A DNA stretch of 64,000 bases, taken from Gammaproteobacteria bacterium (GTDB lineage: Bacteria; Pseudomonadota; Gammaproteobacteria; Ga0077536). Of the stretch, positions 23,637 to 63,360 are shown in pieces. Positions within the stretch are counted from its first letter, which is position 1, and each line of letters opens with the position of its first letter. Below the pieces are notes generated by a model. It made no database searches. It was given only the letters and a program-made list of their open reading frames with translations, and was not told the origin of the DNA. A program made the translations under genes and the position numbers. The DNA lies in assembly GCA_016874535.1 (NCBI GenBank), contig VGUA01000001.1, positions 41,188 to 105,187 of the forward strand, in the 5' to 3' direction.

Positions 23637-23659
23637 CCTCCCGGACTCCTCAGGTTTGC

Positions 23660-24208
23660 ATGATGCAGGCATCTCCGTCGCGCGGAACTTCGCGCAGGAA
23701 TTTCCTTCGCCTCTCGGGGCTTCTCTGTGCGACTGCCACCACGCGCGCCCTGGCCATGGCGGCCCCCGCACGTGATCTTGCCTTCGCCCATACCCATACC
23801 AGCGAGACGCTTGCGGTGACGTACTGGCGCGGTGGTGCCTACGATCGTCCCGCGCTCGCCTCCATCAATCATCTGCTGCGCGACTTCCGTACGGGACAGG
23901 TCCACGCCATCGAACCAAATCTGCTGGACTACCTTCACGCCGTGCGCTGCGTGCTCGATTGCGATGCCCCGTTTGAAGTGATTTCCGGCTTCCGCAGTCC
24001 GGCCACCAACGAGATGCTGCAACAACGCAGCGGTGGCGTCGCCACCTACAGCCTGCACATGGAGGGGCGCGCCATCGACGTGCGCGTGCCGGGCGTTCCC
24101 ACCTCACGCCTGCGAGATGCCGCCGCCAGCCTCAAGCTGGGTGGCGTGGGGTATTACGCGTCCTCCGGTTTTGTGCATCTGGATACCGGGCGTTTCCGTC
24201 AGTGGTGA
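23660..24208 (+). CDS. DUF882/YcbK(MepK)-like peptidase M15 family protein, Tat-secreted
   Basis: Twin-arginine signal (SRRNFLRLSGLL) followed by the DUF882 zinc D,D-peptidase fold. Divergent partner of the ycbB-like gene, as in E. coli ycbB-ycbK. Confidence 0.75.
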   Translation: MMQASPSRGTSRRNFLRLSGLLCATATTRALAMAAPARDLAFAHTHTSETLAVTYWRGGAYDRPALASINHLLRDFRTGQVHAIEPNLLDYLHAVRCVLDCDAPFEVISGFRSPATNEMLQQRSGGVATYSLHMEGRAIDVRVPGVPTSRLRDAAASLKLGGVGYYASSGFVHLDTGRFRQW

Positions 24209-37850: not shown

Positions 37851-37911
37851 CAACCCTCTCCCCCGGGGCCCGGCAAGCCCCCGGCTGCCCGGCCCCATTA
37901 ACTTAAAGGCC

Positions 37912-42334: not shown

Positions 42335-42772
42335 GTGGCGCAGCCGCGTTTGGTGTTGGACACGAATCTGGTGCTTTCGGCACTGGTGTGCAGTTCCGAG
42401 CGCGCGGCGCGCTGGCGGATGATGTGGCAACGCAGGCTCATCCTGCCCTTGGTATCGCAGGCCACTGCCGCGGAGCTCATGCGGGCTTTGGCGTATCCCA
42501 AGTTCAAGCTCGGCAGCGCGGAGCAGGAGGAATTGCTGGCCGACTATCTGCCCAGCTGTGAGGTGGTGTCTGTGCCGCAGCCGCCCCCGGTCACGCCACC
42601 CTGCAGAGATCCAGCCGATACCGCATTTCTGATCCTGGCGTTGGCCGGGAAGGCAGATGCAATCGTCACCGGTGACAAGGACTGGCTTGCCTTGGCTGGT
42701 ATTTTCGCATGCCCAATCTTGACCACCGAGGCGGGCCTGCAGGTCTCCGAAAAATGGGTGACAGTTACCTGA
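42335..42772 (+). CDS. PIN-domain protein (putative TA-system toxin, TIGR00305-like), orphan
   Basis: LVLDTNLVLSAL... and DPADTAFLILALAGKADAIVTGDKDW match the PIN acidic-residue pattern. GTG start. No antitoxin ORF is evident upstream. The stop codon lies inside repeat copy 1. Confidence 0.6.
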   Translation: MAQPRLVLDTNLVLSALVCSSERAARWRMMWQRRLILPLVSQATAAELMRALAYPKFKLGSAEQEELLADYLPSCEVVSVPQPPPVTPPCRDPADTAFLILALAGKADAIVTGDKDWLALAGIFACPILTTEAGLQVSEKWVTVT

Positions 42773-42818
42773 TTTCTGGAAATAGGGTAACTGTCACTAA
42801 TTTATGTCACCAATTTAT
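42754..42818. repeat. Palindromic repeat family, copy 1 (GGGTGACAGTTACCTGATTTCTGGAAATAGGGTAACTGTCACTAATTTATGTCACCAATTT)
   Basis: Imperfect palindrome of the GGTGACAGTTACCC...GGGTAACTGTCACC unit plus an extra GTCACCAATT half-site. It lies between the convergent PIN gene and amidase 3' ends. Confidence 0.85.
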
Positions 42819-48184: not shown

Positions 48185-49018
48185 ATGCCTCTGGTAGCCG
48201 CCATGCTTGTGCCGGGATCGCCGCTGCCCATGCTGCGACCGGACAATCCGCCTTGGCAGCCTTTGGTCCAAGGCTTTGCGCAGGCACGCGAAAGACTCGC
48301 GGCAAGCCAGCCCGAAGTGCTGCTGCTCTATTCCACGCAATGGATCGCGGTGCTCGATCAACTCTGGCAGACCCGCGCGCATCTCCAGGGGCTGCATGTG
48401 GACGAGAACTGGTATGAGTTTGGCGATCTGCCGTTTGATCTCCGGGTGGATACCGCGCTGGCGGAGGCCTGCGTGGAGGGCACTCGCGCGCTGGGCGTGA
48501 ACGCCAAGGGCGTGGACTACGACGGCTTTCCGCTCGATACCGGCACCATCGTGGCCTGTCGCATGCTCGATCCGGAAGGGCGACTCCCCATCGTGCTTGC
48601 GGCCAACAATCTCTATCACGACTGGGCCCAGACCAAGCGGTTGGGAGCGATGGCTGCAGAGCAGGCAGAACGGGCAGGCAAGCGCTATGCGGTGATCGGT
48701 ATCGGTGGCCTGTCCGGCACGGTATTCCGGCACGAGATAAGCATCGAGGATGACCACTTCGCAACGCCGGCGGACGATGCACTCAACCAGCAGTTGTTTG
48801 CGGCACTCGCGCGCGGCAATGAATCGGGTCTGGAGGCAGAGTGTGCTGCTTATGCCGGCGCGGCGCGGGCGGACATGGGCCTCAAGCATCTGGCCTTTGT
48901 GCTCGGTGCGATGGGCAATCGCGGATTTGGCACCGAAGTGCTGGGCTATGGACCGGTGTGGGGCAGTGGAGCCGCGGTGATCGACTTCACGGGGGCGGGC
49001 CTTGCTCAAGGAATATGA
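48185..49018 (+). CDS. LigB-like paralogue lacking metal ligands (non-catalytic alpha-type subunit)
   Basis: 277 aa. Clear paralogue of the upstream gene, but the His motifs are replaced (MLVPGSPLP, LLLYSTQW). This matches the AmnA/CnbCa-type alpha subunits. RBS AGGAA. Confidence 0.65.
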   Translation: MPLVAAMLVPGSPLPMLRPDNPPWQPLVQGFAQARERLAASQPEVLLLYSTQWIAVLDQLWQTRAHLQGLHVDENWYEFGDLPFDLRVDTALAEACVEGTRALGVNAKGVDYDGFPLDTGTIVACRMLDPEGRLPIVLAANNLYHDWAQTKRLGAMAAEQAERAGKRYAVIGIGGLSGTVFRHEISIEDDHFATPADDALNQQLFAALARGNESGLEAECAAYAGAARADMGLKHLAFVLGAMGNRGFGTEVLGYGPVWGSGAAVIDFTGAGLAQGI

Positions 49019-50405
49019 AGATCTCGATGCAATAGGACTGACCGAGTGGATACGCTCGGGTGAGGTGAGCGCGGCGGAAGTGCTGGAAGAAGCGATCCGG
49101 CGCGCGGAGGCGGCCAATGTCTCGCTCAATTTCATCGCCCACCGCGCCTATGACGAGGCGCGCAAGCGTGTAGGCGATGGCACTTTGCCACGCGGTCCGC
49201 TGCACGGCGTGCCGTGGTTGGTGAAGGAGCTCGCCACGCTCTGGCAAGGCCAACCTTTCACCAACGCCCTGCCGTGGATGCGCGGGGTGGTGGCGCCCTG
49301 CGATTCTGAAATCCTCTCCCGGCTCAAGCATGCAGGCATGGTGCCGTTCGCCAAATCCACCGCACCCGAAAACGGCTGGATGCTGGCAACAGAGTCATCT
49401 CTGCACGGCATCACCCGCAATCCTTTCAATCTGGACAGAACACCCGGCGGATCGAGCGGCGGCTCTGCCGCAGCGGTTGCGGCGCGCGTGGTGCCGATGG
49501 CGGAAGCCTCGGACGCCGGGGGATCGATTCGGGGGCCCGCTGCAAACTGCGGCCTGGTTGGCCTCAAACCCGCGCGCGGACGCGTGAGCTTGGCGCCCGC
49601 CCTGGGTGATTTCTGGCATGGCGGCGCAACGATTCTTGGCGTTACCCGCACCGTGCGCGACACCGCCCTACTGCTGGATGTGACACAAGGGCAGTTGCCC
49701 GGAGATCCTTACCAGTTGCCGCCTCCTGCGCGGCCCTATCTCGAAGAAGTCGGGATCCCGCCGGGCAAGCTGCGCATCGCCATCGTCACGAATACGCCCG
49801 CGGGTGGCACGCCACTCGATCCACAAATCGCTGCGGCCGTTGTGGCCACCGGTGCCTTGCTGGAAAGTCTGGGTCACCTGGTGGAGCCGCAGGTGGTGCC
49901 GTATGACTATCCGCGTCTGCTGGAGACCTATACCGCCATCGCCGCCACGGAGACAGCGGCTTTCTTCGAGGCCGTCATTCCCATGGTCGGAAGATCTGCG
50001 GAGCGCGCGGACATGGCGCCGATGTACTGGTCCATGTGTGAGAAGGGTCGGGCCACCACCGGCGTACAGCACGCGGCGAATATCGAAGCCATGCGGCAGA
50101 TCGCGCGCGACATCATGGGCCGCATGAACACCTACGATGCGTGGTTGATGCCTGTGCTACCGATGCTGCCGCGTGCGCACGGCTATTACGACATGTCCCG
50201 CGACGTGGACTATTACAACCGCGAGCTGCTGGGGCCGGACTGCTGCTACACGATGCCCTTCAACGTGAGCGGCGCACCGGCCATCGCCATGCCCGCCGGC
50301 TTCTCACGCGACGGGCTGCCGATAGGCGTTCAATTCGTGGGCCGGGATTGTGACGAAGCCACCCTCATCCGGCTGGCCGCGCAGCTCGAGCGCGCCCGGC
50401 AATAG
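49002..50405 (+). CDS. amidase (amidase-signature family)
   Basis: 467 aa with GGSSGGSAAAVAARVVPMAEASDAGGSIRGPA and the catalytic Lys in LVKEL. Overlaps the preceding gene by 17 nt (same operon). Confidence 0.85.
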   Translation: MLKEYEDLDAIGLTEWIRSGEVSAAEVLEEAIRRAEAANVSLNFIAHRAYDEARKRVGDGTLPRGPLHGVPWLVKELATLWQGQPFTNALPWMRGVVAPCDSEILSRLKHAGMVPFAKSTAPENGWMLATESSLHGITRNPFNLDRTPGGSSGGSAAAVAARVVPMAEASDAGGSIRGPAANCGLVGLKPARGRVSLAPALGDFWHGGATILGVTRTVRDTALLLDVTQGQLPGDPYQLPPPARPYLEEVGIPPGKLRIAIVTNTPAGGTPLDPQIAAAVVATGALLESLGHLVEPQVVPYDYPRLLETYTAIAATETAAFFEAVIPMVGRSAERADMAPMYWSMCEKGRATTGVQHAANIEAMRQIARDIMGRMNTYDAWLMPVLPMLPRAHGYYDMSRDVDYYNRELLGPDCCYTMPFNVSGAPAIAMPAGFSRDGLPIGVQFVGRDCDEATLIRLAAQLERARQ

Positions 50406-50410
50406 GAAAA

Positions 50411-50576
50411 TTGGTGGGAAATTGGTGACAGTTACCCCATTTCGGAATTCGTGACAGTTACCTCATTTCGGAATTCGTGACAGTTACCTCATTTCCGCAA
50501 ATAGGGTGACTGTCACGGTATGTACGTCACGGTACCGCCACTGGCTGGGGAAATAGGGTAACTGTCACCCATTTCC
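50411..50576. repeat. Palindromic repeat family, copy 2 (compound: three tandem 27-30-bp half-units GTGACAGTTACCYCATTTCGGAATTC plus inverted half-units)
   Basis: TTGGTGACAGTTACCCCATTTCGGAATTC, GTGACAGTTACCTCATTTCGGAATTC, GTGACAGTTACCTCATTTCCGCAAATAGGGTGACTGTCAC ... GGAAATAGGGTAACTGTCACCC. It is directly followed by the AAGGAG RBS of the hydantoinase-like gene. Confidence 0.85.
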
Positions 50577-50597
50577 CAAGCCTAAGGAGTCACGACC

Positions 50598-51988
50598 ATG
50601 CATGATCTCGTCCTGCGTAACGGTTTGGTAGTGACGCCCGCGGGCAGCTGTGGGGAGGAGTCGCAGTAGACGGCGAGCGCATCACACGGGTGGGCGCCGA
50701 TGCGGAGCTTCGACAAGGGCGCCGGGAAATCGACCTCAACGAACGCATCCTGCTACCAGGCGTATTCGATCCTCATATTCATTTTGAGGTTGGAGAGCGC
50801 TTCGGTGACGAAGCGATGGCGGAAGATTTCCGACACGACAGCAGGGACTGCCTGATTGGGGGCGTGACCTCCATTGCCACTACAACCGTTCTGGGGCGCG
50901 ACCCCTTGCCTGAACTGGTGGCGCGCGGAATCAAGGCGGGCACGGGCCAGGCTTGGTGTGACTTCAAATTCACCGGCGTTGTGATGACGCGCGAACACGT
51001 TCGCGAGATCGAGGCTGCCGCACACGCTGGAGCCACTTCATTCAAATTCTTCACCGGCTATGTGGGAGAGCAGGCAGAGGGCTTCGGGATGTCCAAGGAA
51101 GGGATACCACCGGACATGTTCTACGAGGCCTGCGAGGCGCTGGCGCGCTGCGAGCGCCCGGTATTCGCCAAGATTCATGCTGAGGATCCATACGTTCGCG
51201 GGCTGCTGGTTGACCGACTGCGACGCAGTGGCCGCGCCGATCAGCTTGTTGCCTGGGCCGAATCCACCCCGGAATGGGCCGAAGCCGTCCAGATCTTCAC
51301 CTATGGCTGCATCGCGCATGATTTCCGTATCCCACTTTACCCGGTGCACATCAGTGCCGCGTACACGGTGCGCTTTCTTGAGTACTTCATGCAGCAGGGC
51401 GTGAACGTGGTACCCGAGACTGTGACGAGTTTCCTCGCCACCACGGCGCATCAGATGGATGCGCACGGCATGGGATGTAAGGCCAAGATTCAGCCGCCGA
51501 TTCGCTTTGCCGAGGACAAGGAGCGACTGTGGCGTGGCGTGCGTGAAGGTGTCATCAAGGTCGTCGGCACCGACAGCATTCCTTATTCCAGTGGCTTCAA
51601 GGAAGGAGCCGATTTCTGGGAATGTCGCGTCGGCTTAAACCTCCAGATGGCGGACACACTGCCCCTCTTGTTTGATGAAGGAATCAACCAACGTCGCATA
51701 GACCTCAACCGTCTGGCGGAGATTACCTCTACCAACGCGGCGAAACTCTATGGGCTCTATCCCAAAAAGGGCGCGATTGCCCCGGGGAGTGATGCGGATC
51801 TGGTAGTCGTCGATCCCGAGCGCACCGCGGTGCTGGGCGTCAACAGAATGCGTTCCCGTGCCGACTACTCGATGTGGCACGACCGTCGCCTCAAAGGCAT
51901 TCCGGTAATCACCGTCCTGCGTGGCCGGGTTGTGATGGAGGATGGTGAGATCGTGGCCAATGAACCAACCGGCCGTTTCATCCACTGA
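50598..51988 (+). pseudogene. hydantoinase/dihydropyrimidinase-like cyclic amidohydrolase with an apparent -1 frameshift near 50640-50670
   Basis: A perfect RBS (TAAGGAGT) plus ATG at ~50598 encodes the canonical N-terminus MHDLVLRNGLVVTPAG and then hits TAG after 23 codons. The rest (GVAVDGERITRVGADAEL...LLPGVFDPHIHFE, carboxylated-Lys site SFKFF, VGTDSIPY) continues in another frame (track ORF 50690..51988). Confidence 0.6.
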
Positions 51989-52112
51989 GACCGTCAAGAT
52001 CCGGGTCCATCGGCAAAGGCTCTTCTATGACCTCTGACAGCACGCGCAAGCTTTACCGCGAAGCCAGCATCGGGCACGTATTGGGATTTGTCAACGCCCG
52101 GCCCTGATCGTC

Positions 52113-52681
52113 GTGGACATGCAGTACGGATTCACGGACCCCGCACGTTCGTCACTGGCCGCGGATTGTTCGCGCGAGATACCGCAGATGAACGCGCTGG
52201 TGGATGCGATGCGCTCCCGTGGCGCCCCTATTTTCTGGTCCGTGATTGCCTATCGCGACAGCGAGGTGCGTGATGCGCGCCTGTGGTCACGCAAGGCCCC
52301 CCCTTGGGCGTGCTGGTCGAGAACACAGCGATGACGGAGATCGATGCCCGCATGCACTTTGCCCCTGAAGACTTCCTCATCGTGAAGAAGCATGCATCGG
52401 CCTTCTTTGGCACCCCCTTGGCTTCCATGCTCACGGCCAGCACAGTCGACACCACTGTGGTGGTTGGTTGCACGACCAGTGGCTGCGTACGGGCAACGGT
52501 CACGGATGCAATCGCGCATGGTTTTCGACCCATCGTCCCGCGGGAGGCGGTTGCAGACCGGGCGCCTGAACCGCATCTGGCGAGTCTTTTCGACATGGGC
52601 GCGAAATATGCCGATGTGATGACGGTGGAAGAGACCCTCCAGGCCATTTGCGCCTGCCCGCATACGCATCCCGGAAATTAG
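52113..52681 (+). pseudogene. isochorismatase-family hydrolase with a frameshift at a C7 homopolymer (~52297-52303) and no canonical upstream start
   Basis: The N-terminal part (ALIVVDMQYGFTDP...) is in frame 0 (52113..52334). The C-terminal part (FLIVKKHASAFFGTPL...VVVGCTTSGCVRATVTDA with catalytic Cys) is in frame 2 (52283..52681). One extra C in the GGCCCCCCCTT run would join them. The stop codon lies inside repeat copy 3. Confidence 0.6.
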
Positions 52682-52762
52682 TGACAGTTACCCTATTTCC
52701 TGAAATAGGGTAACTGTCACCAATTCCCAAAAAATGGGGTAACTGTCACCAATTTCTCATGG
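52672..52762. repeat. Palindromic repeat family, copy 3
   Basis: GGAAATTAGTGACAGTTACCCTATTTCCTGAAATAGGGTAACTGTCACCAATT plus an extra half-site GGGGTAACTGTCACCAATTT. It lies between convergent 3' ends (isochorismatase-like gene and cytochrome c). Confidence 0.85.
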
Positions 52763-53152
52763 CCAGTGACGCGTAGGCACTCCGAATGGTGCGCGCAGTT
52801 GCTGCAGGTAACTCACCAGCTGCCAGATGGAGTTCTCAGGCAGGAGTTCGCCGTAGGCGGGCATGCCATGCGGGCGTCCATTGGCGATGGAGTGGAACAG
52901 CGCGTCAGCATCTCCGCCAAAGCGCCAGCGCCCGTCAGCGAGGCTGGGGCCGACCCAACCCGATCCCCCTCCGCCGTGGCAGCCGTCGCAGTTCATGCTG
53001 GAGAAGAGTGCTTCGCCAGCAGCCACTGCACCGGGCTCCCCCGCGAGCGGATTGCCGGCGGGCGCTTCATCTGCGATGACCGTAAAAGCAGCCACTGCCA
53101 CCGCCATCGCGCAGACCACCGAAGACCAGAGCCTCACAGCGCAAACACCCAC
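52757..53152 (-). CDS. c-type cytochrome (ExaB/c550-like electron acceptor of the adjacent PQQ dehydrogenase)
   Basis: 131 aa with a signal peptide and a CDGCH haem motif. The start overlaps the PQQ-ADH stop by 19 nt. Confidence 0.75.
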   Translation of the reverse strand: MGVCAVRLWSSVVCAMAVAVAAFTVIADEAPAGNPLAGEPGAVAAGEALFSSMNCDGCHGGGGSGWVGPSLADGRWRFGGDADALFHSIANGRPHGMPAYGELLPENSIWQLVSYLQQLRAPFGVPTRHWP

Positions 53153-54924
53153 ACCATGCCACCTTGGCTGGTGTACCGCGCGAGATCGGGCGCGAAATCG
53201 GTGGGCGGTCGCACATCAGCCGGATCTGCCGAATTCACGTCACCCGCCACCAGTGACCAGTCGCCGCCGATCCCGGAGTACACCGCGATGTACTGTCGTC
53301 CATCAGGTCCGCGATAACTGATGGGTGCACCGATCACCCCCGACCCCACCTTGAACTTCCACAGTGGCTTGCCGGTGTTGGCATCAATCGCCTTGAACCA
53401 GCCATCGAGCGTGCCGTAGAACGCCACGTCACCGGCCGTGACCAAGCTGCCGCTCCACACAGGGAAGCGCTCGTTTACTTCCCACTTCTTGCGGCCGGCC
53501 GCTGCATCCCAGGCCATGAACCCTCCCAGATGAGGGCCTGCACCCGGATGATAGGGAATGGTGGCGCCGACATACGGCGTGCCTTTGACGTAAATCGCGT
53601 CAGCCGATTGCCAGTCCATGCAGAGATTTAGCGTGGGTACATAGAAGAGCTTGGTGCGCGGAGACCAGGCAGCGGGCGCAGATGGCCCTTTGCCGCCTTC
53701 GAGCGTCGGGCAGATGTTCTTTACCAGACCGTGCGATTTGCCGGTCAATTTTTCCGGCACCACCAGCGGTCGGCCCGTGGTCTTGTCGACACCCGTCGCC
53801 CAGTTCACCGGCACATAAGGCTCGGCGACCAGCACCTCGCCAGTCGCGCGATCGAGTGCGTAGGCAAAGCCGTTCTTGTCGAAATGCACCAAGGCCTTAC
53901 GCACCCGGCCATCAATCTCCAGATCGACCAGGATGTTCTCCGCCGTCGCGTCGTAATCCCAGTTGTCGAAGGGCGTGAACTGATAAGCCCACACCAGCGA
54001 GCCGTCACCCGGCTTGCGGGCCATCACGCTCGCACTCCACTTGTTGTCGCCGAGACGCTGTTCCGCGTTGTAGGGGCCGGGGTTGCCGGTGCCGTAGTAC
54101 ACGAGATCAAGCGCCGGGTCATACGACAGCCAGCCCCATACCGGCGCACCACCGCGCTCCCAGCTTTCTTCGGCCCAAGTGTCCGTGCCGGCGTTCGGTG
54201 CTGGCGGGTAGGAAGGTTTGAAAGTTTCCTGCTTTACGCCCATTCCGGTATCAGGCCCCAGATTGCGCATCTGCCAGACAATCGCGCCAGTTTCCAGATC
54301 AAGCGCCTTCAATGAGCCGCGAATCCCGAACTCCCCGCCGGAGGGCCCCACCAGCACGCGGTTTCCCGCCACCAGCGGCGCCATGGTCAGGGTTTCGCCG
54401 CTGGCGAGATCCGCGACAGTGGTCTTCCAGAGTTCCTGCCCGGTTTTCGCGTCCACCGCCACCGTGCGGCCATCGAGCAGGTTGTAAACGATCTTGCCGT
54501 CGGCATGCACGGCCCCGCGATTCACGGCATCACAACAGGCGATACCAATCGCGGCGGGATTGGCATCCGGCCGGTACTTGAACCGCAGGGGATAGTCTTC
54601 CTGAGTCAGATCGAAGGCATACAGCACATTGGGCCACGGCGTGACGACATAGAGCGTGTCATCCACCACCAAAGGCTGGCCCTCATGTCCGCCCAGCACG
54701 CCGGTGGAGAAATTCCAAACCATGCGCAGCTTGCCGGCGTTCTCGGGCGTGATCTCGGCCAGCTCGCTGTAGCGCGTGCCGGCCATGTCCCCACCGGGCT
54801 GCGTCCACTCCTCACCCGCACCCGCCTGAACCTCGCCGGCGCCTAACAGCAGCCCCACCAGAAAAATGGGTGACAGTAACCCTATTTCCCGGAATCGGAT
54901 GGCTGTCGCGGTTTTTCCAGGCAT
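53134..54924 (-). CDS. PQQ-dependent alcohol/methanol dehydrogenase, type I, probable lanthanide-dependent (XoxF/ExaF/PedH-like)
   Basis: Eight-bladed propeller with the vicinal disulfide CC (IACCDAV) and a catalytic Asp in WDYDA, which has the extra Asp characteristic of Ln-dependent enzymes (Ca-type MxaF has WDYAG). Start taken at M16, giving the signal peptide MPGKTATAIRFREIGLLSPIFLVGLLLGAGEVQA, part of which is encoded by repeat copy 4. Confidence 0.8.
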   Translation of the reverse strand: MPGKTATAIRFREIGLLSPIFLVGLLLGAGEVQAGAGEEWTQPGGDMAGTRYSELAEITPENAGKLRMVWNFSTGVLGGHEGQPLVVDDTLYVVTPWPNVLYAFDLTQEDYPLRFKYRPDANPAAIGIACCDAVNRGAVHADGKIVYNLLDGRTVAVDAKTGQELWKTTVADLASGETLTMAPLVAGNRVLVGPSGGEFGIRGSLKALDLETGAIVWQMRNLGPDTGMGVKQETFKPSYPPAPNAGTDTWAEESWERGGAPVWGWLSYDPALDLVYYGTGNPGPYNAEQRLGDNKWSASVMARKPGDGSLVWAYQFTPFDNWDYDATAENILVDLEIDGRVRKALVHFDKNGFAYALDRATGEVLVAEPYVPVNWATGVDKTTGRPLVVPEKLTGKSHGLVKNICPTLEGGKGPSAPAAWSPRTKLFYVPTLNLCMDWQSADAIYVKGTPYVGATIPYHPGAGPHLGGFMAWDAAAGRKKWEVNERFPVWSGSLVTAGDVAFYGTLDGWFKAIDANTGKPLWKFKVGSGVIGAPISYRGPDGRQYIAVYSGIGGDWSLVAGDVNSADPADVRPPTDFAPDLARYTSQGGMVWVFAL

Positions 54925-55012
54925 GGGGTGGCTTTCGGAAATGGGGTAACTGTCACGAATTTCCGTCACGAATTTCCGGTGAGCGCGGAAATAGGGTAAC
55001 TGTCACCCATTT
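54862..55012. repeat. Palindromic repeat family, copy 4 (compound, about 150 bp)
   Basis: GGGTGACAGTAACCCTATTTCCCGG ... GGAAATGGGGTAACTGTCACGAATTTCCGTCACGAATTTCC ... GGAAATAGGGTAACTGTCACCC. It spans the PQQ-ADH start and 5' region, and lies downstream of the BVMO gene. Confidence 0.85.
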
Positions 55013-56838
55013 ATTTCGCAGCCGGGCAGGTCTCCGGCTGCGCGCCACCCGCGCAGGATGTCGAAAAACCGGAGCGGTCCTCCGCCATAGGAATAGGCGA
55101 AGAAACTGTTGCGGTTACCCGTGCGGCCCTCGTTGTTGTAGTAGCCCGGTGTGCACTCCTGCCGGAACTGCTCACCCATGCTGGCCTTGCTCTCCATCTC
55201 CGCCACCCAGGCGGCTTCGCCTTCCTCGGTGGCTTCCACCTTGCTGGCACCCCGCTGCCGCAACTCATTCAAGATATAGGTCACGTGTCGCGCCTGTTCA
55301 TCCAGCGTCTGCGGCACGTTCACCGTCACGGCACTCTGCGTGAAGCCGAGGAAAAAGCAGTTAGGAAAACCGTGCGTCTGCAACCCGTGCAGGGTGCGCA
55401 GGCCCTCGGCCCATTTCTGGCTCAAGCGGCGTCCATTGCGCCCGACGATGTCATAACCGGCGCGACGGGTGTATCCGGTGCCCACCTCGAAACCGGTCGC
55501 GAAGATGAGGCAGTCGAGTGCGTACTCCTGACCATCCACCACCACCCCGTGTTCGGTGATCCGCTCCACGCCTTTGCCGGCAGTGTCGATCAGATGCACA
55601 TTTGGGCGATTGAAGGTGGGCAGATAATCGTCGTGAAAACACGGGCGTTTGCAGAACTGGCGATACCAAGGCTTCAGCTTCTCGGCGGTGGCCGCATCCT
55701 GCACGATGGATTCCGCGCGAGCGCGCACGGCATTCATCTTCTGGTAGTCCGCGATCTCCATCAGCAGATCGCGCTCTTCGCCGGTGAGTCGGCGGCCAAT
55801 CTTGCGTGAGGCGGTCTTGGCTGCGATGGCGGTGAGGTTGCGGAAGATGTCCGTCCAGCCATCGGAGACGAGATCGACTTCCTGATCTCCACCGGAAACC
55901 AGAATGTTGAAATTCTCCATGCGGCGATACTGCCAGCCGGGCTCGAGCGAGGCGGCCCATTCGGGATCCGTCTCGCGATTGTTGCGGACATCAATGGAGC
56001 TGGGCGTGCGCTGGAATACATGGAGCGATTTGGCCGAGGCGCCGAGATGTGGGATGCACTGCACGGCCGTCGCACCGGTGCCGATGATGCCGACGCGCTT
56101 GTCCTTGAGCCCATGTAGATTGCCAGTGCTGTCGCCACCGGTGTACGCATAATCCCAGCGACTGGTGTGGAAGGTATGGCCCTTGAAGCGGTCGATGCCG
56201 GGTATTCCCGGCAGTTTGGGACGGCTGAGCGGCCCGTTGGCCATGGCGACGAAACGCGCCCGCATCTTGTCGCCGCGATCGGTCTCGATGATCCAGTAGC
56301 CGGATGCCTCATTCCAGTTCATGGCGGTCACCGAGGTCTGCAGCAACGCATCGTCATACAGACGGTAGAGACGAGCGATGTTGCGGGAATGCTCGAGGAT
56401 CTCCGGCGCGTACGAATATTTATGCTTGGGGATGTAGTTCAGCTCCTCCAGCAGCGGCAGGTAGCAGTAGGACTCCACATCGCACATCGCGCCCGGGTAG
56501 CGGTTCCAGTACCAGGTCCCGCCAAAGTCGCCGCCTTGTTCGATGACGCGGATGCTCTCGAAGCCGGCCTCGCGCAGTCGCCCGCCCATCAAGAGGCCAC
56601 CAAATCCGCCACCGATGATGACCACCTCCACCGTGTCGTTCACCGGTGCGCGCTCGATGCGCGGCGTATAGGGATCATCGATGTAGTTGGAGAAGTCGCC
56701 TTTGACCTCCAAGTATTGGTCGTTGGCGTCCTCGCGCAGCCGGCGGTCGCGTTCGGCGAGATAGCGGGCCTTGAGCGCCTGCGGGTCGAAATCGATTTCG
56801 CCAAGCACCTGGCGGATGACGTGCATTGCCTCGGACAT
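55003..56838 (-). CDS. type I Baeyer-Villiger monooxygenase (CPDMO/HAPMO-like, with N-terminal extension)
   Basis: 611 aa with FAD and NADPH Rossmann motifs (IIGGGFGG, IIGTGATA) and the BVMO fingerprint FKGHTFHTSRWD. Confidence 0.85.
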   Translation of the reverse strand: MSEAMHVIRQVLGEIDFDPQALKARYLAERDRRLREDANDQYLEVKGDFSNYIDDPYTPRIERAPVNDTVEVVIIGGGFGGLLMGGRLREAGFESIRVIEQGGDFGGTWYWNRYPGAMCDVESYCYLPLLEELNYIPKHKYSYAPEILEHSRNIARLYRLYDDALLQTSVTAMNWNEASGYWIIETDRGDKMRARFVAMANGPLSRPKLPGIPGIDRFKGHTFHTSRWDYAYTGGDSTGNLHGLKDKRVGIIGTGATAVQCIPHLGASAKSLHVFQRTPSSIDVRNNRETDPEWAASLEPGWQYRRMENFNILVSGGDQEVDLVSDGWTDIFRNLTAIAAKTASRKIGRRLTGEERDLLMEIADYQKMNAVRARAESIVQDAATAEKLKPWYRQFCKRPCFHDDYLPTFNRPNVHLIDTAGKGVERITEHGVVVDGQEYALDCLIFATGFEVGTGYTRRAGYDIVGRNGRRLSQKWAEGLRTLHGLQTHGFPNCFFLGFTQSAVTVNVPQTLDEQARHVTYILNELRQRGASKVEATEEGEAAWVAEMESKASMGEQFRQECTPGYYNNEGRTGNRNSFFAYSYGGGPLRFFDILRGWRAAGDLPGCEING

Positions 56839-57106
56839 GGAACAAGCCCTGCGGAAAGGGTCGACGACCCGGACGGGCCATCATACCCCGAGGCCGGGGT
56901 CTCGATCGCCGCCGCCGCAGCCACCTGCGGCAGACTGGCCTTGCAGACCCGGTGCGGGATGCATAGTGAATGCGCTGCAGCATCTCTTTGCTGAGGTGTG
57001 CAACGCTTGACGAGTCCTTCGCAAACCGCGATACGAGCCGAGGAGACCACACAAGCACCGGCGCGGGGTCGCACTTCGCGCACATGAGCCTAAAAAGGAA
57101 GCCACC

Positions 57107-58153
57107 ATGCGCTTTGGACTGCTCTACCCGCCCACGTTCGACGCCGCCACGCACTGCGACTCCGCCACCCTCTACCAACAGATCTGCGAGCAGGTGGAAC
57201 TGGGCGAAACCTTGGGCTACGGGGCGGTGTGGCTGGCGGAACATCACTTCACGCCCTATGGCGGCGACATACCCAACCCGCCGCTGCTGCTGGCTGCGCT
57301 CGCGCAGAGAACGAGAAAGATGCGCCTTGGCACGGCCGGCGTCGCGCTTCCACTCAACCGCGCACTGAACATTTCGTAGCAACTCGCGATGGTTGATGCC
57401 CTCTCGGGGGGACGCCTTGATATCGGCGTGGTGCGAGCATTCCTCGATTTCGAATTTGAGGCGCTGCAGGTGGACATGGGCGAGTCCCGCGATCGCTTCA
57501 ACGAGGCGGTCGAGATTCTGCTCGGCACTTGGGCGAACGAACGCTTCAGTTATCAGGGCCGCCATAACCGGTTTGAGAACGTGATGATGCGGCCCCGTCC
57601 TGTCCAGCGTCGGCCGCGGATCATCGTCGGCACGGTGCTGAGCCCTGAGTCCGCGCGCTACGCCGGGCTGAACGGCTTTGGTCTCATGGTGATTCCCTAC
57701 GCGGTGACGCTGGAGGGCGTGAAACAGAGCGTCAAGATCTACCACGAGGCATTGCTTGGGGCTGGGCACAACATTGAAGACCACACGGTGCAGGCCACTT
57801 TCCATCTCTACGCCGCCTCCACTGAAGCTGAGGCGAAGGCCGCCGCGCGCGAGCCGATGGAACGTTATGTGCAGTATTTCGCGGATGCGATCGCGGGTGA
57901 TCGCTGGTCCAAGGATTACGTGGGCTACCAGGGGATGGCAGAGAAGGTCCTGGGCCTCAAGAACTTTGATGTGCTCTACGACGGTCGCGTGATGATCGGC
58001 GATCCGCCACGGCTGCACGCAATGATGGAGCGGGCTCTGGAAGCCGGCATCGGGGAACTGTCATTCATCACCATGCTGCCCGGCCTGGAACAGGCAAAAG
58101 TGCTGGATTGCCTGCGGCTCTTTGCTGAAGAAATCATGCCGCGCTATCGGTAA
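57107..58153 (+). pseudogene. LLM-class (luciferase-like) flavin-dependent oxidoreductase interrupted by in-frame TAG at 57377-57379
   Basis: Track ORFs 57107..57379 and 57389..58153 are in the same frame and are separated only by TAG plus 3 codons. The stop falls in the conserved ...LPLNRAL/NIS*QLAMVDALSGGRLDIGV region of the TIM barrel. Confidence 0.6.
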
Positions 58154-58267
58154 GCCGCGACACTCGTGAAAGTCGTCGGTGGGATGTGCAAGGCCGTAGC
58201 AGTGTTCGCGATTCAACAAGGCCATGGTGTCCTGGGCGCCGAGCCCCGAATCCCCGCAGCTCCGGGC

Positions 58268-58377
58268 AATTGGTGACGGAAATTGGTGACAGTTACCCTA
58301 TTTCCGGAAATGAGGTAACTGTCACCAATTTGGGGGTGCTACCTAATCTTCCGAAATGGGGTAACTGTCACGAATTA
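58268..58377. repeat. Palindromic repeat family, copy 5
   Basis: AATTGGTGACGGAAATTGGTGACAGTTACCCTATTTCCGGAAATGAGGTAACTGTCACCAATTT plus a downstream half-site GGGGTAACTGTCACGAATT. It lies between convergent 3' ends (LLM gene and FkbM-like gene). Confidence 0.85.
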
Positions 58378-58385
58378 TCATGCGG

Positions 58386-59264
58386 TCAGGCGTACCAGCA
58401 CTCGGAAAGCACGCGATTGGGATGCATCAGGCTATTGGGCTGGTCCAGTGGGTGGGGGAAAACCCGCGCCGGTCGGCTTTGCGTGATGCGATCCCGGCGC
58501 AGCAGCGTGAACTCCATCGCACGCGATACGGCGTAACCGGCCACGTGTGAGATGGGCGAATGATTGTTGGGATGAATGTGAACCACCGCGAAATCATCGA
58601 GCAGAGGCTCGATGCAGCGGGGGATGCGTCTGTTCACCACGCCGCCGTTCAAGTTGGTCAGCTGGTCGAGCTGATGCAGCTCCATGACGATGATGCGGAA
58701 GCGCTTGAACAAGGACGGGTCCGTCGCAGCCAGCACCGGGTACTCGGCACCCTCGATGTCCATCTGCAGCAGGAGATCGTTGTCCCCGGGTGCGGCATGC
58801 CGGTTCACCCAATCGGCGAGCGACACCACCCCGTCGCCAGTCTGCGCGCCCAGATTCAACTTCTCGAAGGTCATCAGCGAATGCGTGAAGGAGGGGCCCT
58901 CCACCGTGCCATCGGCGAGGTGACACGGGATCCCCCGTTCCAGCAGGGAGTTCTCGAACGCCGAAGTGGGACCCACGCCGGGAGAGAAACAGCGCTGGAT
59001 TCCTGCGAGGTCGTCCGGGACGAGATAGCCGCCGTCGCCGTCTCCCCCGAGGCGGATGAGCTTGTGCTCGGTTTCCACCGGCTTCAGGCGTTGGATGAAT
59101 GGCCCGAGCAACAGCGGTACCAGCAGGCGGCGCAGAATGCGCTCGCCCAGGGGCAGCTTCTCGCGGAACCGCTTGCGGTTGACCTTTCCGGTCTTGGGAT
59201 TGCCAGACATACCCGGATAGCGGCGATTCCAAGCATTCTCTTGAAGAGATTCCGGGCTCCTCAC
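58386..59264 (-). CDS. hypothetical protein with FkbM-methyltransferase-like core (tentative)
   Basis: Motif LLQMDIEGAEYPVL resembles the KIDVEGAE block of FkbM-family methyltransferases, with a Gly-rich region LGGDGDGGYL. The true start may be an internal Met (~59210). Assignment is weak. Confidence 0.4.
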   Translation of the reverse strand: MRSPESLQENAWNRRYPGMSGNPKTGKVNRKRFREKLPLGERILRRLLVPLLLGPFIQRLKPVETEHKLIRLGGDGDGGYLVPDDLAGIQRCFSPGVGPTSAFENSLLERGIPCHLADGTVEGPSFTHSLMTFEKLNLGAQTGDGVVSLADWVNRHAAPGDNDLLLQMDIEGAEYPVLAATDPSLFKRFRIIVMELHQLDQLTNLNGGVVNRRIPRCIEPLLDDFAVVHIHPNNHSPISHVAGYAVSRAMEFTLLRRDRITQSRPARVFPHPLDQPNSLMHPNRVLSECWYA

Positions 59265-59394: not shown

Positions 59395-60474
59395 ATGCCC
59401 AAATTGACCTTCACCGAAACCAGGCTGTCTCTGTCGCGGACCTACGCGCTCCCTGAGAGAGAAGACGCGCCAACGACAGCCCCGGTAGCGCTCACCCCGG
59501 TTGGCTACGAGCACCTGTCCCTGTTGCCCGAGGCTCTGGAACCGGCGATGGAGGTTCCCTCCTCAGAGGACCCTCCGCCAGCCGATAGCCGCCTGGCCAA
59601 TCCCAATCCCTACGGATTCACGCCATCGCTGCCGGAAATCTTCTACGCACAGGAACCCATCCTTGCGGAAGACGGCACAGTCATCGGTTACCTCGATACC
59701 TGCACTTGGCAACAGGACGGATACACCTCCACCTTCGTAGTCGAGTACGACGCTGACTTCAATGTGGTGAGCACGCTCTACTACGACAGCGCGGGATATT
59801 CGTCCTACAGCCTGTTCTACGCCGTCGTCGATGAGGAAGGCAACATCACGGGCTACGAAAACTTCTCTTCCTGGACAGATGGCACCGGAGCATGGGGCGA
59901 GTCGGTGAACGTGTACGACGCGTCTTGGCAGTTCCTCGGCAGTGAATATCGTGACTCCTGGGGCAATATCGTCAATACCGTCTACTTCTATGCGGAAGAC
60001 GGCAGCCGGGCAGGCCAAGAGGTCCGCGCGAGCTGGACGGACGCCGAGGGCGGCGTGACGGAAACCACCACTGTCTACGACGCCAACTGGCAGTGCATCT
60101 ATACCGAATCCCGGGACAGCTGGGGTACCACGGTCACCACGCAGTACATCTACGGCGAAACTGGAGAACTGGTGGCGCTGGAGATTACCGCCTCAGGCGT
60201 GGACGAGAACGGAGAAGCCTGGAGCAGCTACACCTGGCAGCCAATGGTTGAGGTGGATACGGGTGGAATCGACTGGGTCGATTTGCTGCCTGTCACGGAG
60301 GTGCCGCCGGAGGAGCCGCGGCCGGAGGAAATCCCGCAGATCATCATCTGTGAATTCCTGGTGCCTCATCCGGAGACTATCGACCTCGACCTTCAACCCC
60401 CGGAAGCCATCGAACCGATTCCGGTCGAGTGGCTGCGCCCTGCAGAGCTCGTCGGCGTACCCGGAAATTGGTGA
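59395..60474 (+). CDS. acidic Tyr/Trp/Thr-rich protein with internal ~43-aa tandem repeats, unknown function
   Basis: Repeats such as YDASWQFLGSEYRDSWGNIVNTVYFYAEDG and YDANWQCIYTESRDSWGTTVTTQYIYGETG. No signal peptide. A/T-ending codons (AAT, TAT, GAA) are more frequent than in neighbouring genes. The stop codon lies inside repeat copy 6. Confidence 0.5.
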   Translation: MPKLTFTETRLSLSRTYALPEREDAPTTAPVALTPVGYEHLSLLPEALEPAMEVPSSEDPPPADSRLANPNPYGFTPSLPEIFYAQEPILAEDGTVIGYLDTCTWQQDGYTSTFVVEYDADFNVVSTLYYDSAGYSSYSLFYAVVDEEGNITGYENFSSWTDGTGAWGESVNVYDASWQFLGSEYRDSWGNIVNTVYFYAEDGSRAGQEVRASWTDAEGGVTETTTVYDANWQCIYTESRDSWGTTVTTQYIYGETGELVALEITASGVDENGEAWSSYTWQPMVEVDTGGIDWVDLLPVTEVPPEEPRPEEIPQIIICEFLVPHPETIDLDLQPPEAIEPIPVEWLRPAELVGVPGNW

Positions 60475-60531
60475 AAGTTACCCTATTTCTTCGTTGATCG
60501 GCAGAAATTGGTGACAGTTACCCTATTTCTT
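60462..60531. repeat. Palindromic repeat family, copy 6 (two direct half-units)
   Basis: GGAAATTGGTGAAAGTTACCCTATTTCTTCG ... GAAATTGGTGACAGTTACCCTATTTCTTTG. Confidence 0.8.
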
Positions 60532-60728
60532 TGAGCAGAGCCCCGCTCAGTATCCCCAACCGGTCCCGGTCCCGGCCCCTTCGCCTCATTGCCACGTCCA
60601 GTGGCATGCAAGCCATCAACACTCACCGTCGAAAACAGCCTTTCGGTGCGCTGCAGTGCGAGGTGCGTCTGTAACGCTTTGATGTCAGGATTCCGGGACA
60701 AAGAGCGAACGGCGAGGATCAGAATCCC

Positions 60729-61538
60729 ATGGGACGCATGCCACCAGAAGTAATGATGAGCGAGCTCAGTCTGCTGTGGCAGAACGTGTTCAGCTGGGTA
60801 AGTTGGGGCTTGGTCTTGATCATGCTTCTGGTAGCGTTCGTTCTGGGCCGTCGCCACCGCACGCCTTTTTATGTATTCGCGATCATTGCTGCAGGCATGG
60901 GAGCCTGGGCTGAGCCCTTGTACGACGTTGCTTTCGATTTGTGGTTTCACGACGTGCATGACGGTCAACCCGGTGCGATGTTTTCGCATTTCACGGCATT
61001 TGGTGTGGTTCAACCGTACTGGTCCCACAGCGGTTACATCATCTTGTATGCCGCGGCATGCCTCTACGCGGGCAAGAGGATGTATGACGGCGGAATTTCG
61101 CCGACTCTGTTGGGGGTGATCTGGGTGGCCGAAATCTTCGCGTCCTGTCTCTTCGAAGTAATAGGCACGAGCACCGGGGTATATACCTACTACGGGCCCT
61201 ACGTGATGCGACTGTGGAATTACCCGTTTGTCATCGGGGTGCTGGAGGGCACACAGACCACGCTCTTCACGGTTCTGGCGGTGCTCTGGTGGCGCAAAGC
61301 CACACGGCCCATCGAGCTCGCGGGCCTCATCCTCTTGTTCCCTGTGACCATGCTGGGCGCGAATTTCGGGCTGGGCTGGCCGATCATCATCGCCCTGCAT
61401 CTCGCGGAGCCTACCTTCAGCCCAGCCTTGGTCTGGCTGGGCACGCTCTTGAGCATCGCACTATGTTCACTGGCGGTTCTCTGCATCAGCCGATTTCTAC
61501 CCCGCGCTGGTGACGCAGCACTCCCGGCGAGGGGATGA
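60729..61538 (+). CDS. polytopic membrane protein, unknown function
   Basis: 269 aa with about 7 hydrophobic helices rich in Trp and Tyr. No recognisable family. Confidence 0.5.
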   Translation: MGRMPPEVMMSELSLLWQNVFSWVSWGLVLIMLLVAFVLGRRHRTPFYVFAIIAAGMGAWAEPLYDVAFDLWFHDVHDGQPGAMFSHFTAFGVVQPYWSHSGYIILYAAACLYAGKRMYDGGISPTLLGVIWVAEIFASCLFEVIGTSTGVYTYYGPYVMRLWNYPFVIGVLEGTQTTLFTVLAVLWWRKATRPIELAGLILLFPVTMLGANFGLGWPIIIALHLAEPTFSPALVWLGTLLSIALCSLAVLCISRFLPRAGDAALPARG

Positions 61539-61692
61539 CCGTCCCCGTTTTTCAGGGATTCCCCAGAACTTTCCACCCCTGACAACACCCGAGGCTCACC
61601 TCCGGCCACGGTGATACGCTATCACCTCGCGGGACCCGGCCGACAAGGCCGGCCACTGAGTCTACGTCGGCGGCACGGGCCGCGTCGGAGGT

Positions 61693-62004
61693 GTGCTGGT
61701 CAATGTGATCGAGCAACATCTGGCCGAAGTCGCCGAGCTATGTAGACGCGCAGGTGCACGAAGGCTTGATGTGTTCGGCCCAGCTGCGCGGGGAGAATTC
61801 GACCCGTCGGCCAGTGATCTCGACTTCGTCGTCGAGTTCGATGAGCTTCCGCCAGCACGCTATGCCGACGCCTTCTTTGCTCTTAAAGAGGGCCTGGAGG
61901 CACTTTTCGGTCTACCGGTCGATCTCGTTACCGAGGCCAGCTTTGCCAACCCGCACTTCCGCGAACGGGTATATGCCGAGAAGCGCGCGGTCTATGCACG
62001 CTGA
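61693..62004 (+). CDS. nucleotidyltransferase-domain protein (MntA-type antitoxin of an MNT/HepT pair)
   Basis: 103 aa with the minimal nucleotidyltransferase motif GPAARGEFDPSASDLDFVVEF (GS...D.D). GTG start. Overlaps the downstream HEPN gene by 11 nt. Confidence 0.75.
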   Translation: MLVNVIEQHLAEVAELCRRAGARRLDVFGPAARGEFDPSASDLDFVVEFDELPPARYADAFFALKEGLEALFGLPVDLVTEASFANPHFRERVYAEKRAVYAR

Positions 62005-62608
62005 CAGCCGCAAACTGCTCTGGGATGCACTGAGAGCAGCCGAGCGCGTACGCCGTTTCACCCAAGGCAAAACCTTCGAGCACTATCAGACCGATGACTT
62101 GCTGAGCTCAGCCGTGGAACGGCAACTCGGGATTGTGGGTGAGGCTCTGAGCCAGCTCCGGCGCATTGACCCGGAGAGTGCCAACCGGATTGAAGGGCTG
62201 TCCCGCGCAGTCGGTTTTCGAAACGTTCTGGTCCATGGATATCAGGCTGTGGATAACCGCCTGGTATGGGGTGTCGTCGATGGCAGTCTGGGCGACCTGA
62301 TGACATCGCTAGCCGCGCTGCTGAAAGTTCCCCGAGGTTCAGGGCCGCACCGGCAGCACGAATCGCAAGGTATGTCGCCACGAGTCATCTCCCAGATGCT
62401 CGGTCAGTGCCGAGCCGGTCGCGCCGGAGAACCTGCCCGAGCCGCCGATGATGGGACGCACCAGGTCGAGGCCGCCGGCAATCGTGCCCTGCCGCCGAGG
62501 GTAGAAGCCGCTCCCGCTGACGAAGATCTGGTCAGGCGAGCCCGCCAGGGTGCCACTGCTGTCGCCAAACACGAAGTTGAGCGTCGTCATTCGCACTTCA
62601 TCCCCTGA
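61994..62608 (+). CDS. HepT-like HEPN-domain toxin (DUF86), 3' end uncertain
   Basis: HEPN Rx4HxY motif FRNVLVHGY about 80 aa from the ATG at 61994. The frame has no stop until 62608. This gives a ~90-aa C-terminal extension that overlaps the convergent gene 62339..62914. Confidence 0.65.
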   Translation: MHADSRKLLWDALRAAERVRRFTQGKTFEHYQTDDLLSSAVERQLGIVGEALSQLRRIDPESANRIEGLSRAVGFRNVLVHGYQAVDNRLVWGVVDGSLGDLMTSLAALLKVPRGSGPHRQHESQGMSPRVISQMLGQCRAGRAGEPARAADDGTHQVEAAGNRALPPRVEAAPADEDLVRRARQGATAVAKHEVERRHSHFIP

Positions 62609-62914: not shown

Positions 62915-63037
62915 GCCGGCATCTCCACAATCTTGCAGACTGCGACCATAGCCGAGGCCTCATGGGCTCTCCAGATCCACGGCCGACCAATCTCGGAAAA
63001 TGCCAACTGGCGCACGCCCCTGAAATGGGCGACGGGA

Positions 63038-63131
63038 AAGTGGTGGGGAAATTGGTGACAGTTACCCTATTTCCGGAAATAGGGTAACTGTCACCAATTA
63101 CGGACGTCACCAATTACGGACTGTCACCGAT
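63038..63131. repeat. Palindromic repeat family, copy 7 (contains the perfect 50-bp palindrome AATTGGTGACAGTTACCCTATTTCC/GGAAATAGGGTAACTGTCACCAATT at ~63051-63100)
   Basis: The two 25-nt halves are exact reverse complements. It is followed by two extra half-sites (GTCACCAATTACGGAC x2). Confidence 0.9.
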
Positions 63132-63144
63132 ATCGCCGATGGGA

Positions 63145-63360
63145 TCAGCCTTCCCGCTCCGTGGCGCGCTTGAGTGTGTCTCCGTCGCGGAGCCGCGCGG
63201 CTTCTTCCTCGTATTCATTGGCCTCGACCTTCAGCTGGAAGAGATGCCAAGCAAGCCACAGCACGCCGGCCACCACCACCATGAAGAGTTCGCTGCCCAC
63301 GAAAGGGTAGAGCGGTCCGATGTCGGTGATTGTGCCGCTCCAGGATTGAACAGTAGCCAT
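63145..63360 (-). CDS. small membrane protein (71 aa) downstream of the ammonium transporter gene
   Basis: Strong RBS (GAAGGAGA) 6 nt before the ATG. One TM helix (LFMVVVAGVLWLAWHLF) and an acidic C-terminus. Confidence 0.5.
   Translation of the reverse strand: MATVQSWSGTITDIGPLYPFVGSELFMVVVAGVLWLAWHLFQLKVEANEYEEEAARLRDGDTLKRATEREG

Follow-up and report, generated by a model that had tools for sequence, protein, structure and literature searches.

The question raised by this locus is whether three enzyme genes that appear broken in one assembled bacterial contig are dead in the organism itself, are still used in some unusual way, or only look broken through sequence errors. The window, as we call the whole stretch of DNA that was analysed, comprises 64,000 nucleotides (nt) of contig VGUA01000001.1 in assembly GCA_016874535.1 (positions 41,188 to 105,187, forward strand). 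The genes in question encode a hydantoinase-like enzyme, an isochorismatase-family enzyme and a luciferase-like (LLM) flavin monooxygenase, and the disruptions that the original prediction had claimed for all three were found in the sequence at the positions given. Our analysis indicated that they are very probably true pseudogenes of recent origin, which have become fixed in an uncultured gammaproteobacterium whose Lake Tanganyika population is nearly clonal. The three genes are as follows.

50598..51988, forward strand: putative pseudogene of a hydantoinase-like amidohydrolase, a D-hydantoinase/dihydropyrimidinase-like cyclic amidohydrolase of 463 codons once repaired.
52027..52681, forward strand: putative pseudogene of an isochorismatase-family amidohydrolase, 219 codons once repaired, split over three frames.
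57107..58153, forward strand: putative pseudogene of a luciferase-like (LLM) flavin monooxygenase, 348 codons.

The hydantoinase-like gene has an AAGGAG at 50584-50589 and an ATG at 50598, meets a TAG at 50667-50669 after 23 codons, and continues in the -1 frame to 51988, all as originally described. Alignment of the window by MAFFT with L099, the Logan assembly of SRR9924787, showed that the missing base sits between 50639 and 50640, in codon 15, where the orthologue reads CCC AGC GGA and the window CCC -GC GGG. A first repair model had put the deletion near 50659, between GAGGAG and TCG; it was rejected when the L099 alignment moved the site. The corrected N-terminus is MHDLVLRNGLVVTP-[S]-GQLWGGVAVDG. 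The AG in the N-terminus quoted by the original prediction is already out of frame. The -1 frame covers positions 1-345 of the 345 of the Pfam Amidohydro_1 profile, and the intact L099 protein, with 463 amino acids (aa), is 95.5% identical to the window copy at the amino-acid level. In the PDB, the orthologue is nearest to D-hydantoinases (1YNY, E 2e-49). The intact orthologue P0363 scored 250.1 bits against TIGR02033, the D-hydantoinase/dihydropyrimidinase equivalog, whose cut-off is 393.25, and from its full-length Amidohydro_1 match the protein belongs to the wider cyclic amidohydrolase superfamily.

The isochorismatase-family gene was found to carry two lesions rather than one. Its N- and C-terminal halves lie in different frames around a run of seven C (C7) at 52297-52303, as had been noticed, with Pfam fragments covering 2-59 and 67-175 of 175 positions. 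This run is the sole C7 of the window and one of three homopolymers of at least 7 bases in 64 kb. It carries the second 1-bp deletion of the gene; the orthologue has AAG GCA CCC ACT CTG there and no homopolymer (L099 sequence at the site, GCACCCACTCTG). A further 1-bp deletion lies at 52090 (52089..52091), where GGT has become GT in GF-G-QRPALIVVDMQ. The true start is the ATG at 52027 (MTSDSTRKLYREASIGHVLGF), whose frame ends past this deletion at the stop 52105-52107. It had been remarked that no start codon closely precedes ALIVVDMQ; this is so because the deletion at 52090 cuts the ATG off from the QRPALIVVDMQ block. Since there are two frameshifts, the one extra C that had been expected to restore a full-length protein cannot repair it, as the deletion at 52090 would remain. 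PF00857 is matched from end to end, and VVDMQ, KKHASAFF and GCTTSGC, which hold the Asp, Lys and Cys motifs, are read in the translation. By BLASTP the window copy shares 91% identity with its intact 219-aa orthologue, P0241, and over the whole codon alignment 88%. The orthologue is nearest in the PDB to N-carbamoylsarcosine amidohydrolase (E 1e-53), while JGI names the homologues maleamate amidohydrolase, and the putative product can be described as resembling either of these enzymes.

The LLM gene is interrupted by a single codon. The ATG at 57107, the TAG at 57377-57379 and the same frame running on to 58153 were all confirmed. Its two fragments cover positions 1-80 and 88-259 of the 314 of PF00296, with scores of 64.3 and 102.6 bits against a gathering cut-off of 27.9. 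The TAG stands in the motif N-x-[AS]-E-Q-L-A-M-V-D, at a Glu that is invariant in 11 out of 11 aligned homologues. The nearest relatives read VSEQLAM, so that GAG to TAG is the sole change needed. Intact homologues of 348 aa are up to 91% identical; they are homologues in a different genomic context and not a syntenic orthologue, and the lesion was judged against them as such. The broken frames go beyond chance, as the lesions interrupt otherwise full-length matches to intact homologues of 348, 463 and 219 aa.

The evidence that carries our interpretation is the recurrence of these lesions. Exact-protein look-ups retrieved JGI assemblies 3300020204, 3300021424, 3300021376, 3300020196, 3300020109 and 3300020578, and Logan assemblies of at least 10 SRA runs. 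At least five of the six JGI identifiers appear in the data-availability list of a Lake Tanganyika study, which describes metagenomes from 24 samples sequenced on Illumina HiSeq 2500 (2x150) and assembled with metaSPAdes, one assembly per sample (PMC8245535). Each contig spanning a lesion carries it unchanged: three for the codon-15 deletion of the hydantoinase-like gene (Logan contigs L093, L094 and L096), seven distinct contigs for both isochorismatase deletions, and ten for the LLM TAG. The original prediction had named identical lesions in independent isolates as the sign of true pseudogenes, and here they are base-for-base the same in 3 to 10 independently assembled contigs. Over 142,664 aligned bases, the population contigs differ from the window by 19 mismatches and 0 gaps. 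In protein clusters at 90% identity, the 432-aa hydantoinase product occurs in 9 contigs, the 132-aa isochorismatase fragment in 19, and the two LLM fragment products in 12 and 8; no near-identical full-length allele is on record in these clusters. The copies thus combine full-length similarity to functional genes, a frame-breaking lesion relative to the orthologue or, for LLM, to the homologues, and a lesion that is not an artefact.

The lesions also appear to be young. Measured against L099, the ratio of non-synonymous to synonymous substitution rates (dN/dS) comes to 0.028 in the hydantoinase-like gene, 0.072 in the isochorismatase-family gene and 0.057-0.24 in intact neighbours; for LLM, measured against L110, it is 0.065. 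With L105 and more distant homologues as outgroups, relative-rate tests found no excess of amino-acid changes on the window branch (hydantoinase 10 vs 5, isochorismatase 2 vs 10). LLM showed no excess either, its 60 synonymous and 22 non-synonymous window-unique changes being akin to those of L098. The low dN/dS together with the lack of a branch excess suggests that the lesions are young, and that the broken genes were probably under strong constraint until recently. The near-absence of other decay fits very recent inactivation. LLM has five radical replacements at otherwise invariant positions (L8P, F27C, D192G, A203E and S335C), where homologues more than 87% identical to it have 0-3; these are suggestive only of a somewhat longer relaxation.

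Comparison with orthologous islands, which the original prediction had called for, requires the neighbouring genes, listed here.

49002..50405, forward strand: amidase-signature amidase, intact (Pfam Amidase 1-444/445), with a real TAG stop at its end.
52757-53152, reverse strand: cytochrome c, an intact backbone gene.
53134-54924, reverse strand: pyrroloquinoline quinone (PQQ)-dependent alcohol dehydrogenase, an intact backbone gene.
55003-56838, reverse strand: type I Baeyer-Villiger monooxygenase (BVMO), an intact backbone gene.
58386-59264, reverse strand: FkbM-type methyltransferase.

The L099 locus is syntenic with the window at about 83% nucleotide identity, and its genes are intact, in the order amidase, 463-aa hydantoinase, 219-aa isochorismatase-family gene, cytochrome c and PQQ dehydrogenase. 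The DNA alignment of the two has just three gaps in coding sequence, each of 1 bp and all in the window. A further relative, lineage C, is represented by L106-L109 from metagenomes of ENA and JGI. It has in common with the window, at 82-95% nucleotide identity, the amidase 3' end, cytochrome c, PQQ dehydrogenase, BVMO, methyltransferase and an ammonium transporter, and is without window positions 50517-52672 (hydantoinase and isochorismatase) and 56911-58390 (LLM). In the first of these places its amidase is followed only by repeats resembling repetitive extragenic palindromes (REPs) and then by cytochrome c; in the LLM slot it has REPs and a small CxxCH cytochrome gene. As lineage C is without all three genes, a relative can dispense with the very genes that are broken in the window. 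The backbone of amidase, cytochrome c, PQQ dehydrogenase and BVMO is common to both related lineages, B and C, at 83-95% nucleotide identity.

Kinship along the region is mosaic. At its amidase 3' end (49920-50402) the window is closest to lineage C, with 95.5% identity. In the cytochrome c/PQQ segment (52760-53985) the closest pair is lineage B with lineage C, at 93%, and the window shows 83.5% identity to each of them. Such a change over a few kb would imply that the lineages have recombined. As the window groups with lineage B in no segment, presence of the cassette in the ancestor and its loss in lineage C make the more parsimonious history. A BVMO-anchored search of genome contigs gave a best match of 80% identity, and 0 of the 80 loci were syntenic with other genes of the cluster. 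The region had been described as a decaying, recently acquired island. Decay agrees with the recurrent lesions, the intact orthologues and the lineage without the cassettes; recent acquisition is not supported, as the backbone is shared with relatives and a Pfam scan of about 55 open reading frames (ORFs) of the window matched no integrase or transposase family.

The boundaries of the missing segments fall in REP-like repeats. The unit is an imperfect palindrome of about 26 nt (AATTGGTGACAGTTACCCTATTTCC and its complement), set in direct and inverted arrays that are strictly intergenic. Seven clusters are present, as follows.

42758-42797: REP-like cluster.
50415..50578: REP-like cluster (AATTGGTGACAGTTACC...), left boundary of the hydantoinase-isochorismatase cassette.
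52673..52756: REP-like cluster, right boundary of the hydantoinase-isochorismatase cassette.
54864-55012: REP-like cluster.
58281..58376: REP-like cluster, right side of the LLM slot.
60471-60522: REP-like cluster.
63055-63094: REP-like cluster.

All of these lie in the right-hand 21 kb or so of the window, with none in the left 42 kb. In a scan of 118 of 122 fetched loci, the repeats were confined to this population and to lineages B and C. The clusters coincide with the presence/absence junctions of the cassettes and with the ends of metagenome contigs, and lineage C joins amidase straight to cytochrome c inside the repeats of the left cassette boundary. The cluster at 52673..52756 provides the stop codon of the isochorismatase-family gene. 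Another reaches into the longest ORF of the PQQ dehydrogenase at its 5' end, which is probably not translated. The repeats share with REPs and bacterial interspersed mosaic elements (BIMEs) the imperfect palindromic 26-nt units and the direct or inverted arrays between genes, here in a clade-specific family. They differ in coinciding with presence/absence junctions of gene cassettes between lineages. No RAYT transposase was seen in the window.

Homologues of the LLM gene head clusters of p450, LLM and soluble di-iron (phenol-hydroxylase-type) monooxygenase genes, and LLM with about 100 bp upstream is 83.5% identical to the first gene of such clusters in L098 and L110. No remnant of the p450 or di-iron monooxygenase partner genes was found within the window, which indicates that the window LLM is an orphan copy.

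A fourth gene, outside the island, is broken as well. In the YcbB/LdtD-like L,D-transpeptidase at 21948-23771 (reverse strand), an in-frame TAG (22983-22985) separates the Scaffold domain from the PG_binding_1 and YkuD domains, and the resulting split (217 aa and 321 aa) recurs in 8 independent Logan assemblies. The lesions are therefore not confined to the island. Our best guess is that this TAG replaces the Trp of a W-P motif, the alignment with YcbB being ambiguous there. Outside the broken genes, every other Pfam-matched gene of the window covers its full profile.

Taken together, four point lesions, namely three 1-bp deletions and one GAG to TAG change, would inactivate two accessory cassettes. 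One of the isochorismatase deletions falls in C7, the window's longest C run, where replication slippage would be expected. Ribosomes entering at the strong ribosome-binding site of the hydantoinase-like gene would stop after 23 codons. In the isochorismatase-family gene, the catalytic Asp (VVDMQ) would be read in another frame than the Lys and Cys, and the middle fragment that bears it could start only at a GTG within the VVDMQ block. The LLM barrel would be cut after residue 90.

The hydantoinase-like and carbamoylsarcosine-amidase-like enzymes probably acted in sequence on a cyclic ureide or imide. In a plausible two-step route, the ring of a hydantoin or cyclic imide would be opened first and the product then decarbamoylated or deamidated. 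Loss of the need for such a pathway, or of one of its enzymes, would free both genes of the cassette from selection, and with a two-step pathway both would therefore decay together. LLM would have decayed as an orphan copy, detached from the monooxygenase operon that it normally leads. Recombination at the bordering REP-like clusters would be the likely route by which the dead genes are removed, as seems already to have happened in the related lineage.

This arrangement recalls the route of hydantoinase and N-carbamoyl-amino-acid amidohydrolase, and the step of creatinine breakdown catalysed by N-carbamoylsarcosine amidase (PDB 1NBA family), in that a D-hydantoinase-like gene adjoins an isochorismatase-fold gene similar to N-carbamoylsarcosine amidohydrolase. 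It differs in that the hydantoinase-like protein falls below the TIGR02033 cut-off and that both genes are very probably dead here.

Unitary bacterial pseudogenes arise by small deletions and nonsense mutations and are later removed by the deletional bias of bacterial genomes. The window copies resemble them in their 1-bp deletions and nonsense codon, in the intact orthologues of one relative and the loss of the genes from another, and in that all indels are deletions. No essential difference sets them apart: the lesions are unusually young (dN/dS 0.03-0.07), the population is free-living and planktonic and not host-restricted, and the copies are not flagged as pseudogenes in public annotation. 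The case is one of ordinary, recent pseudogene formation in accessory cassettes that are dispensable and bounded by REP-like repeats, and it reveals no new mechanism.

Several points weigh against this interpretation. Loss of function is read from the sequence only, and the substrate and the pathway link of the cassette enzymes from family resemblance. The loss in lineage C is a parsimony argument from mosaic kinship and is not proven. Our comparison rests on consensus contigs, and minority intact alleles may be present in the reads. Beyond three indels and one nonsense codon there is hardly any other sign of decay, and an unrecognised rescue would fit this too. The hydantoinase-like gene could in principle be reinitiated at the GTG at 50690, at the cost of about 31 N-terminal residues and with all positions of the Pfam catalytic domain kept.

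Such reinitiation belongs to the first of four alternatives, that the truncated or split products are still functional, as an internally started hydantoinase and a two-piece LLM. We consider this to have little probability. The downstream hydantoinase ORF does keep the entire Amidohydro_1 domain, but full-length homologues and solved D-hydantoinases all align from residue 1-6 on, so the N-terminal strands that it has lost are part of the conserved fold. The strong ribosome-binding site serves the dead 23-codon ORF, and no Shine-Dalgarno sequence was seen before 50690 when the sequence was read by eye. The C-terminal LLM piece has an ATG at 57389; however, no LLM homologue is split at this place among 120 listed matches at E <= 1e-20. 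GenBank and IMG annotate the pieces as proteins, and the isochorismatase-family gene is not rescuable in this way at all.

Expression of the genes by recoding, whether programmed -1 frameshifting, transcriptional slippage or TAG read-through, appears very improbable. All three frameshifts are in the -1 direction and, apart from the lesions, purifying selection on the coding sequences is strong, as recoding would have it, but neither the hydantoinase site (CCC GCG GGC) nor the first of the isochorismatase sites (TTT GTC) offers an X XXY YYZ heptamer. Programmed -1 frameshifting was rejected, as only the C run fits a heptamer and the orthologues lack the motif. At every site the reading frames of the orthologues run on in the ordinary way without a break, and there is therefore no conserved recoding signal; an Rfam scan of the whole window matched no family. 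A TAG followed by C terminates weakly in E. coli, and both in-frame TAGs of the window, in LLM and in the L,D-transpeptidase, precede a C. Against read-through, TAG is the normal terminator of 6 of 47 window genes, two of them also with C after it. Reassignment of TAG or pyrrolysine-type decoding was rejected as well, on the use of TAG and the residues that it replaces and with no search aimed at pyl genes. Besides the six genes that TAG ends, the two in-frame TAGs match different residues, the LLM one a Glu and the L,D-transpeptidase one not a Glu position, and this is therefore not a reassignment.

The original prediction had suggested that the poly-C site could be phase-variable, which would make the C7 tract a contingency switch of the isochorismatase-family gene; on our evidence there is hardly any chance of this. 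In favour of a switch, the tract falls within the coding sequence, no other C run of the window is as long, and C CCC CCT has the form of a slippery heptamer. Nevertheless, the tract is C7 in 7 of 7 distinct spanning contigs (at consensus level), the frame-dependent 132-aa product is the one on record for 19 contigs, and the orthologues have no homopolymer at this place. The deletion at 52090, a frameshift outside any repeat and 207 bp upstream, means that no tract length yields a full-length protein and that no ON state is possible. The contingency loci of Neisseria, Haemophilus, Campylobacter and Bordetella likewise have a poly-C tract in the coding sequence that sets the frame. In contrast to them, the window gene has no tract-length variation among assemblies, no tract in its orthologues and no ON state, and it encodes a catabolic hydrolase and not a surface or restriction-modification function.

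That the lesions are assembly or base-call errors such as homopolymer miscalls, with the genes intact in the organism, has next to no probability: the source is a metagenome-assembled genome and one lesion lies in the C7 homopolymer, but all four lesions are alike in JGI metaSPAdes and Logan contigs from many samples and runs, built from Illumina 2x150 reads without a gap in the aligned bases, and the TAG and two of the deletions fall outside homopolymers, so that errors are excluded at the consensus level and the concentration of errors that had been suggested for this region is refuted.

Ordinary, recent pseudogenisation is thus the reading that we prefer. A broader one, that this is a recently bottlenecked, nearly clonal lineage in early gene loss, whose dead genes are removed cassette by cassette through recombination at REP-like clusters, is possible but seems unlikely at present. 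About 7% of the window genes (4 of about 55) carry young inactivating lesions, one of them in the cell-wall L,D-transpeptidase. If this broader reading were true, the locus would show a free-living freshwater bacterium in the course of reductive evolution, its REP arrays acting as excision points. As it stands, the locus offers a three-stage series for the same cassette, intact, point-lesioned and deleted, and hence a modest illustration of accessory gene loss.

There is also a consequence for annotation. GenBank lists the broken hydantoinase as an ordinary 446-aa protein (MBM4226209.1), carries the broken isochorismatase-family gene under an ordinary protein entry (MBM4226211.1), and has LLM as two proteins, MBM4226215.1 (90 aa) and MBM4226216.1 (254 aa). 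Because GenBank and IMG list the fragments as ordinary proteins, metabolic reconstructions would wrongly credit this genome with a hydantoinase, an isochorismatase-family hydrolase and an LLM enzyme, which are almost certainly not made.

The GC content of the region is only slightly lower (0.60-0.62 vs 0.64-0.65), which likewise gives no support to a recently acquired island. For gene mapping, a filter on GC at third codon positions was too weak, and a self-trained codon model performed better.

Some further observations concern the surroundings. In the repeat-rich half of the window, a PIN-domain toxin gene (42335-42772, forward strand) and an MNT-type nucleotidyltransferase gene (61693-62004, forward strand) each adjoin a REP cluster. 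Window positions 60459-62311 hold a 287-aa ORF of no known family and the MNT-type gene, and both are missing from lineage C (compared with L106 4438-6856). In that same part of L106, lineage C has an extra FkbM-type methyltransferase where window positions 63033-63145 hold only REPs. Immediately beyond the left edge of the window, two contigs from this population carry different genes downstream of mutY (L119 11453-12064 vs L120 6939-7442): a 203-aa NUDIX gene in one, and in the other a 167-aa gene without Pfam match followed by toxin-antitoxin genes. This difference may be strain-level variation.

Two other genes stand out in base composition. A polytopic membrane protein of 557 aa (36225-37898, reverse strand), with no Pfam match at E <= 1e-4, lies in a stretch of AT skew +0.21. 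The DksA homologue (12456 to about 13700, reverse strand) has an N-terminal extension of about 300 aa, rich in Ala, Lys and Pro, with KPAA-type repeats similar to AlgP or histone H1, and this extension accounts for the AT skew of -0.27 at 12-14 kb.

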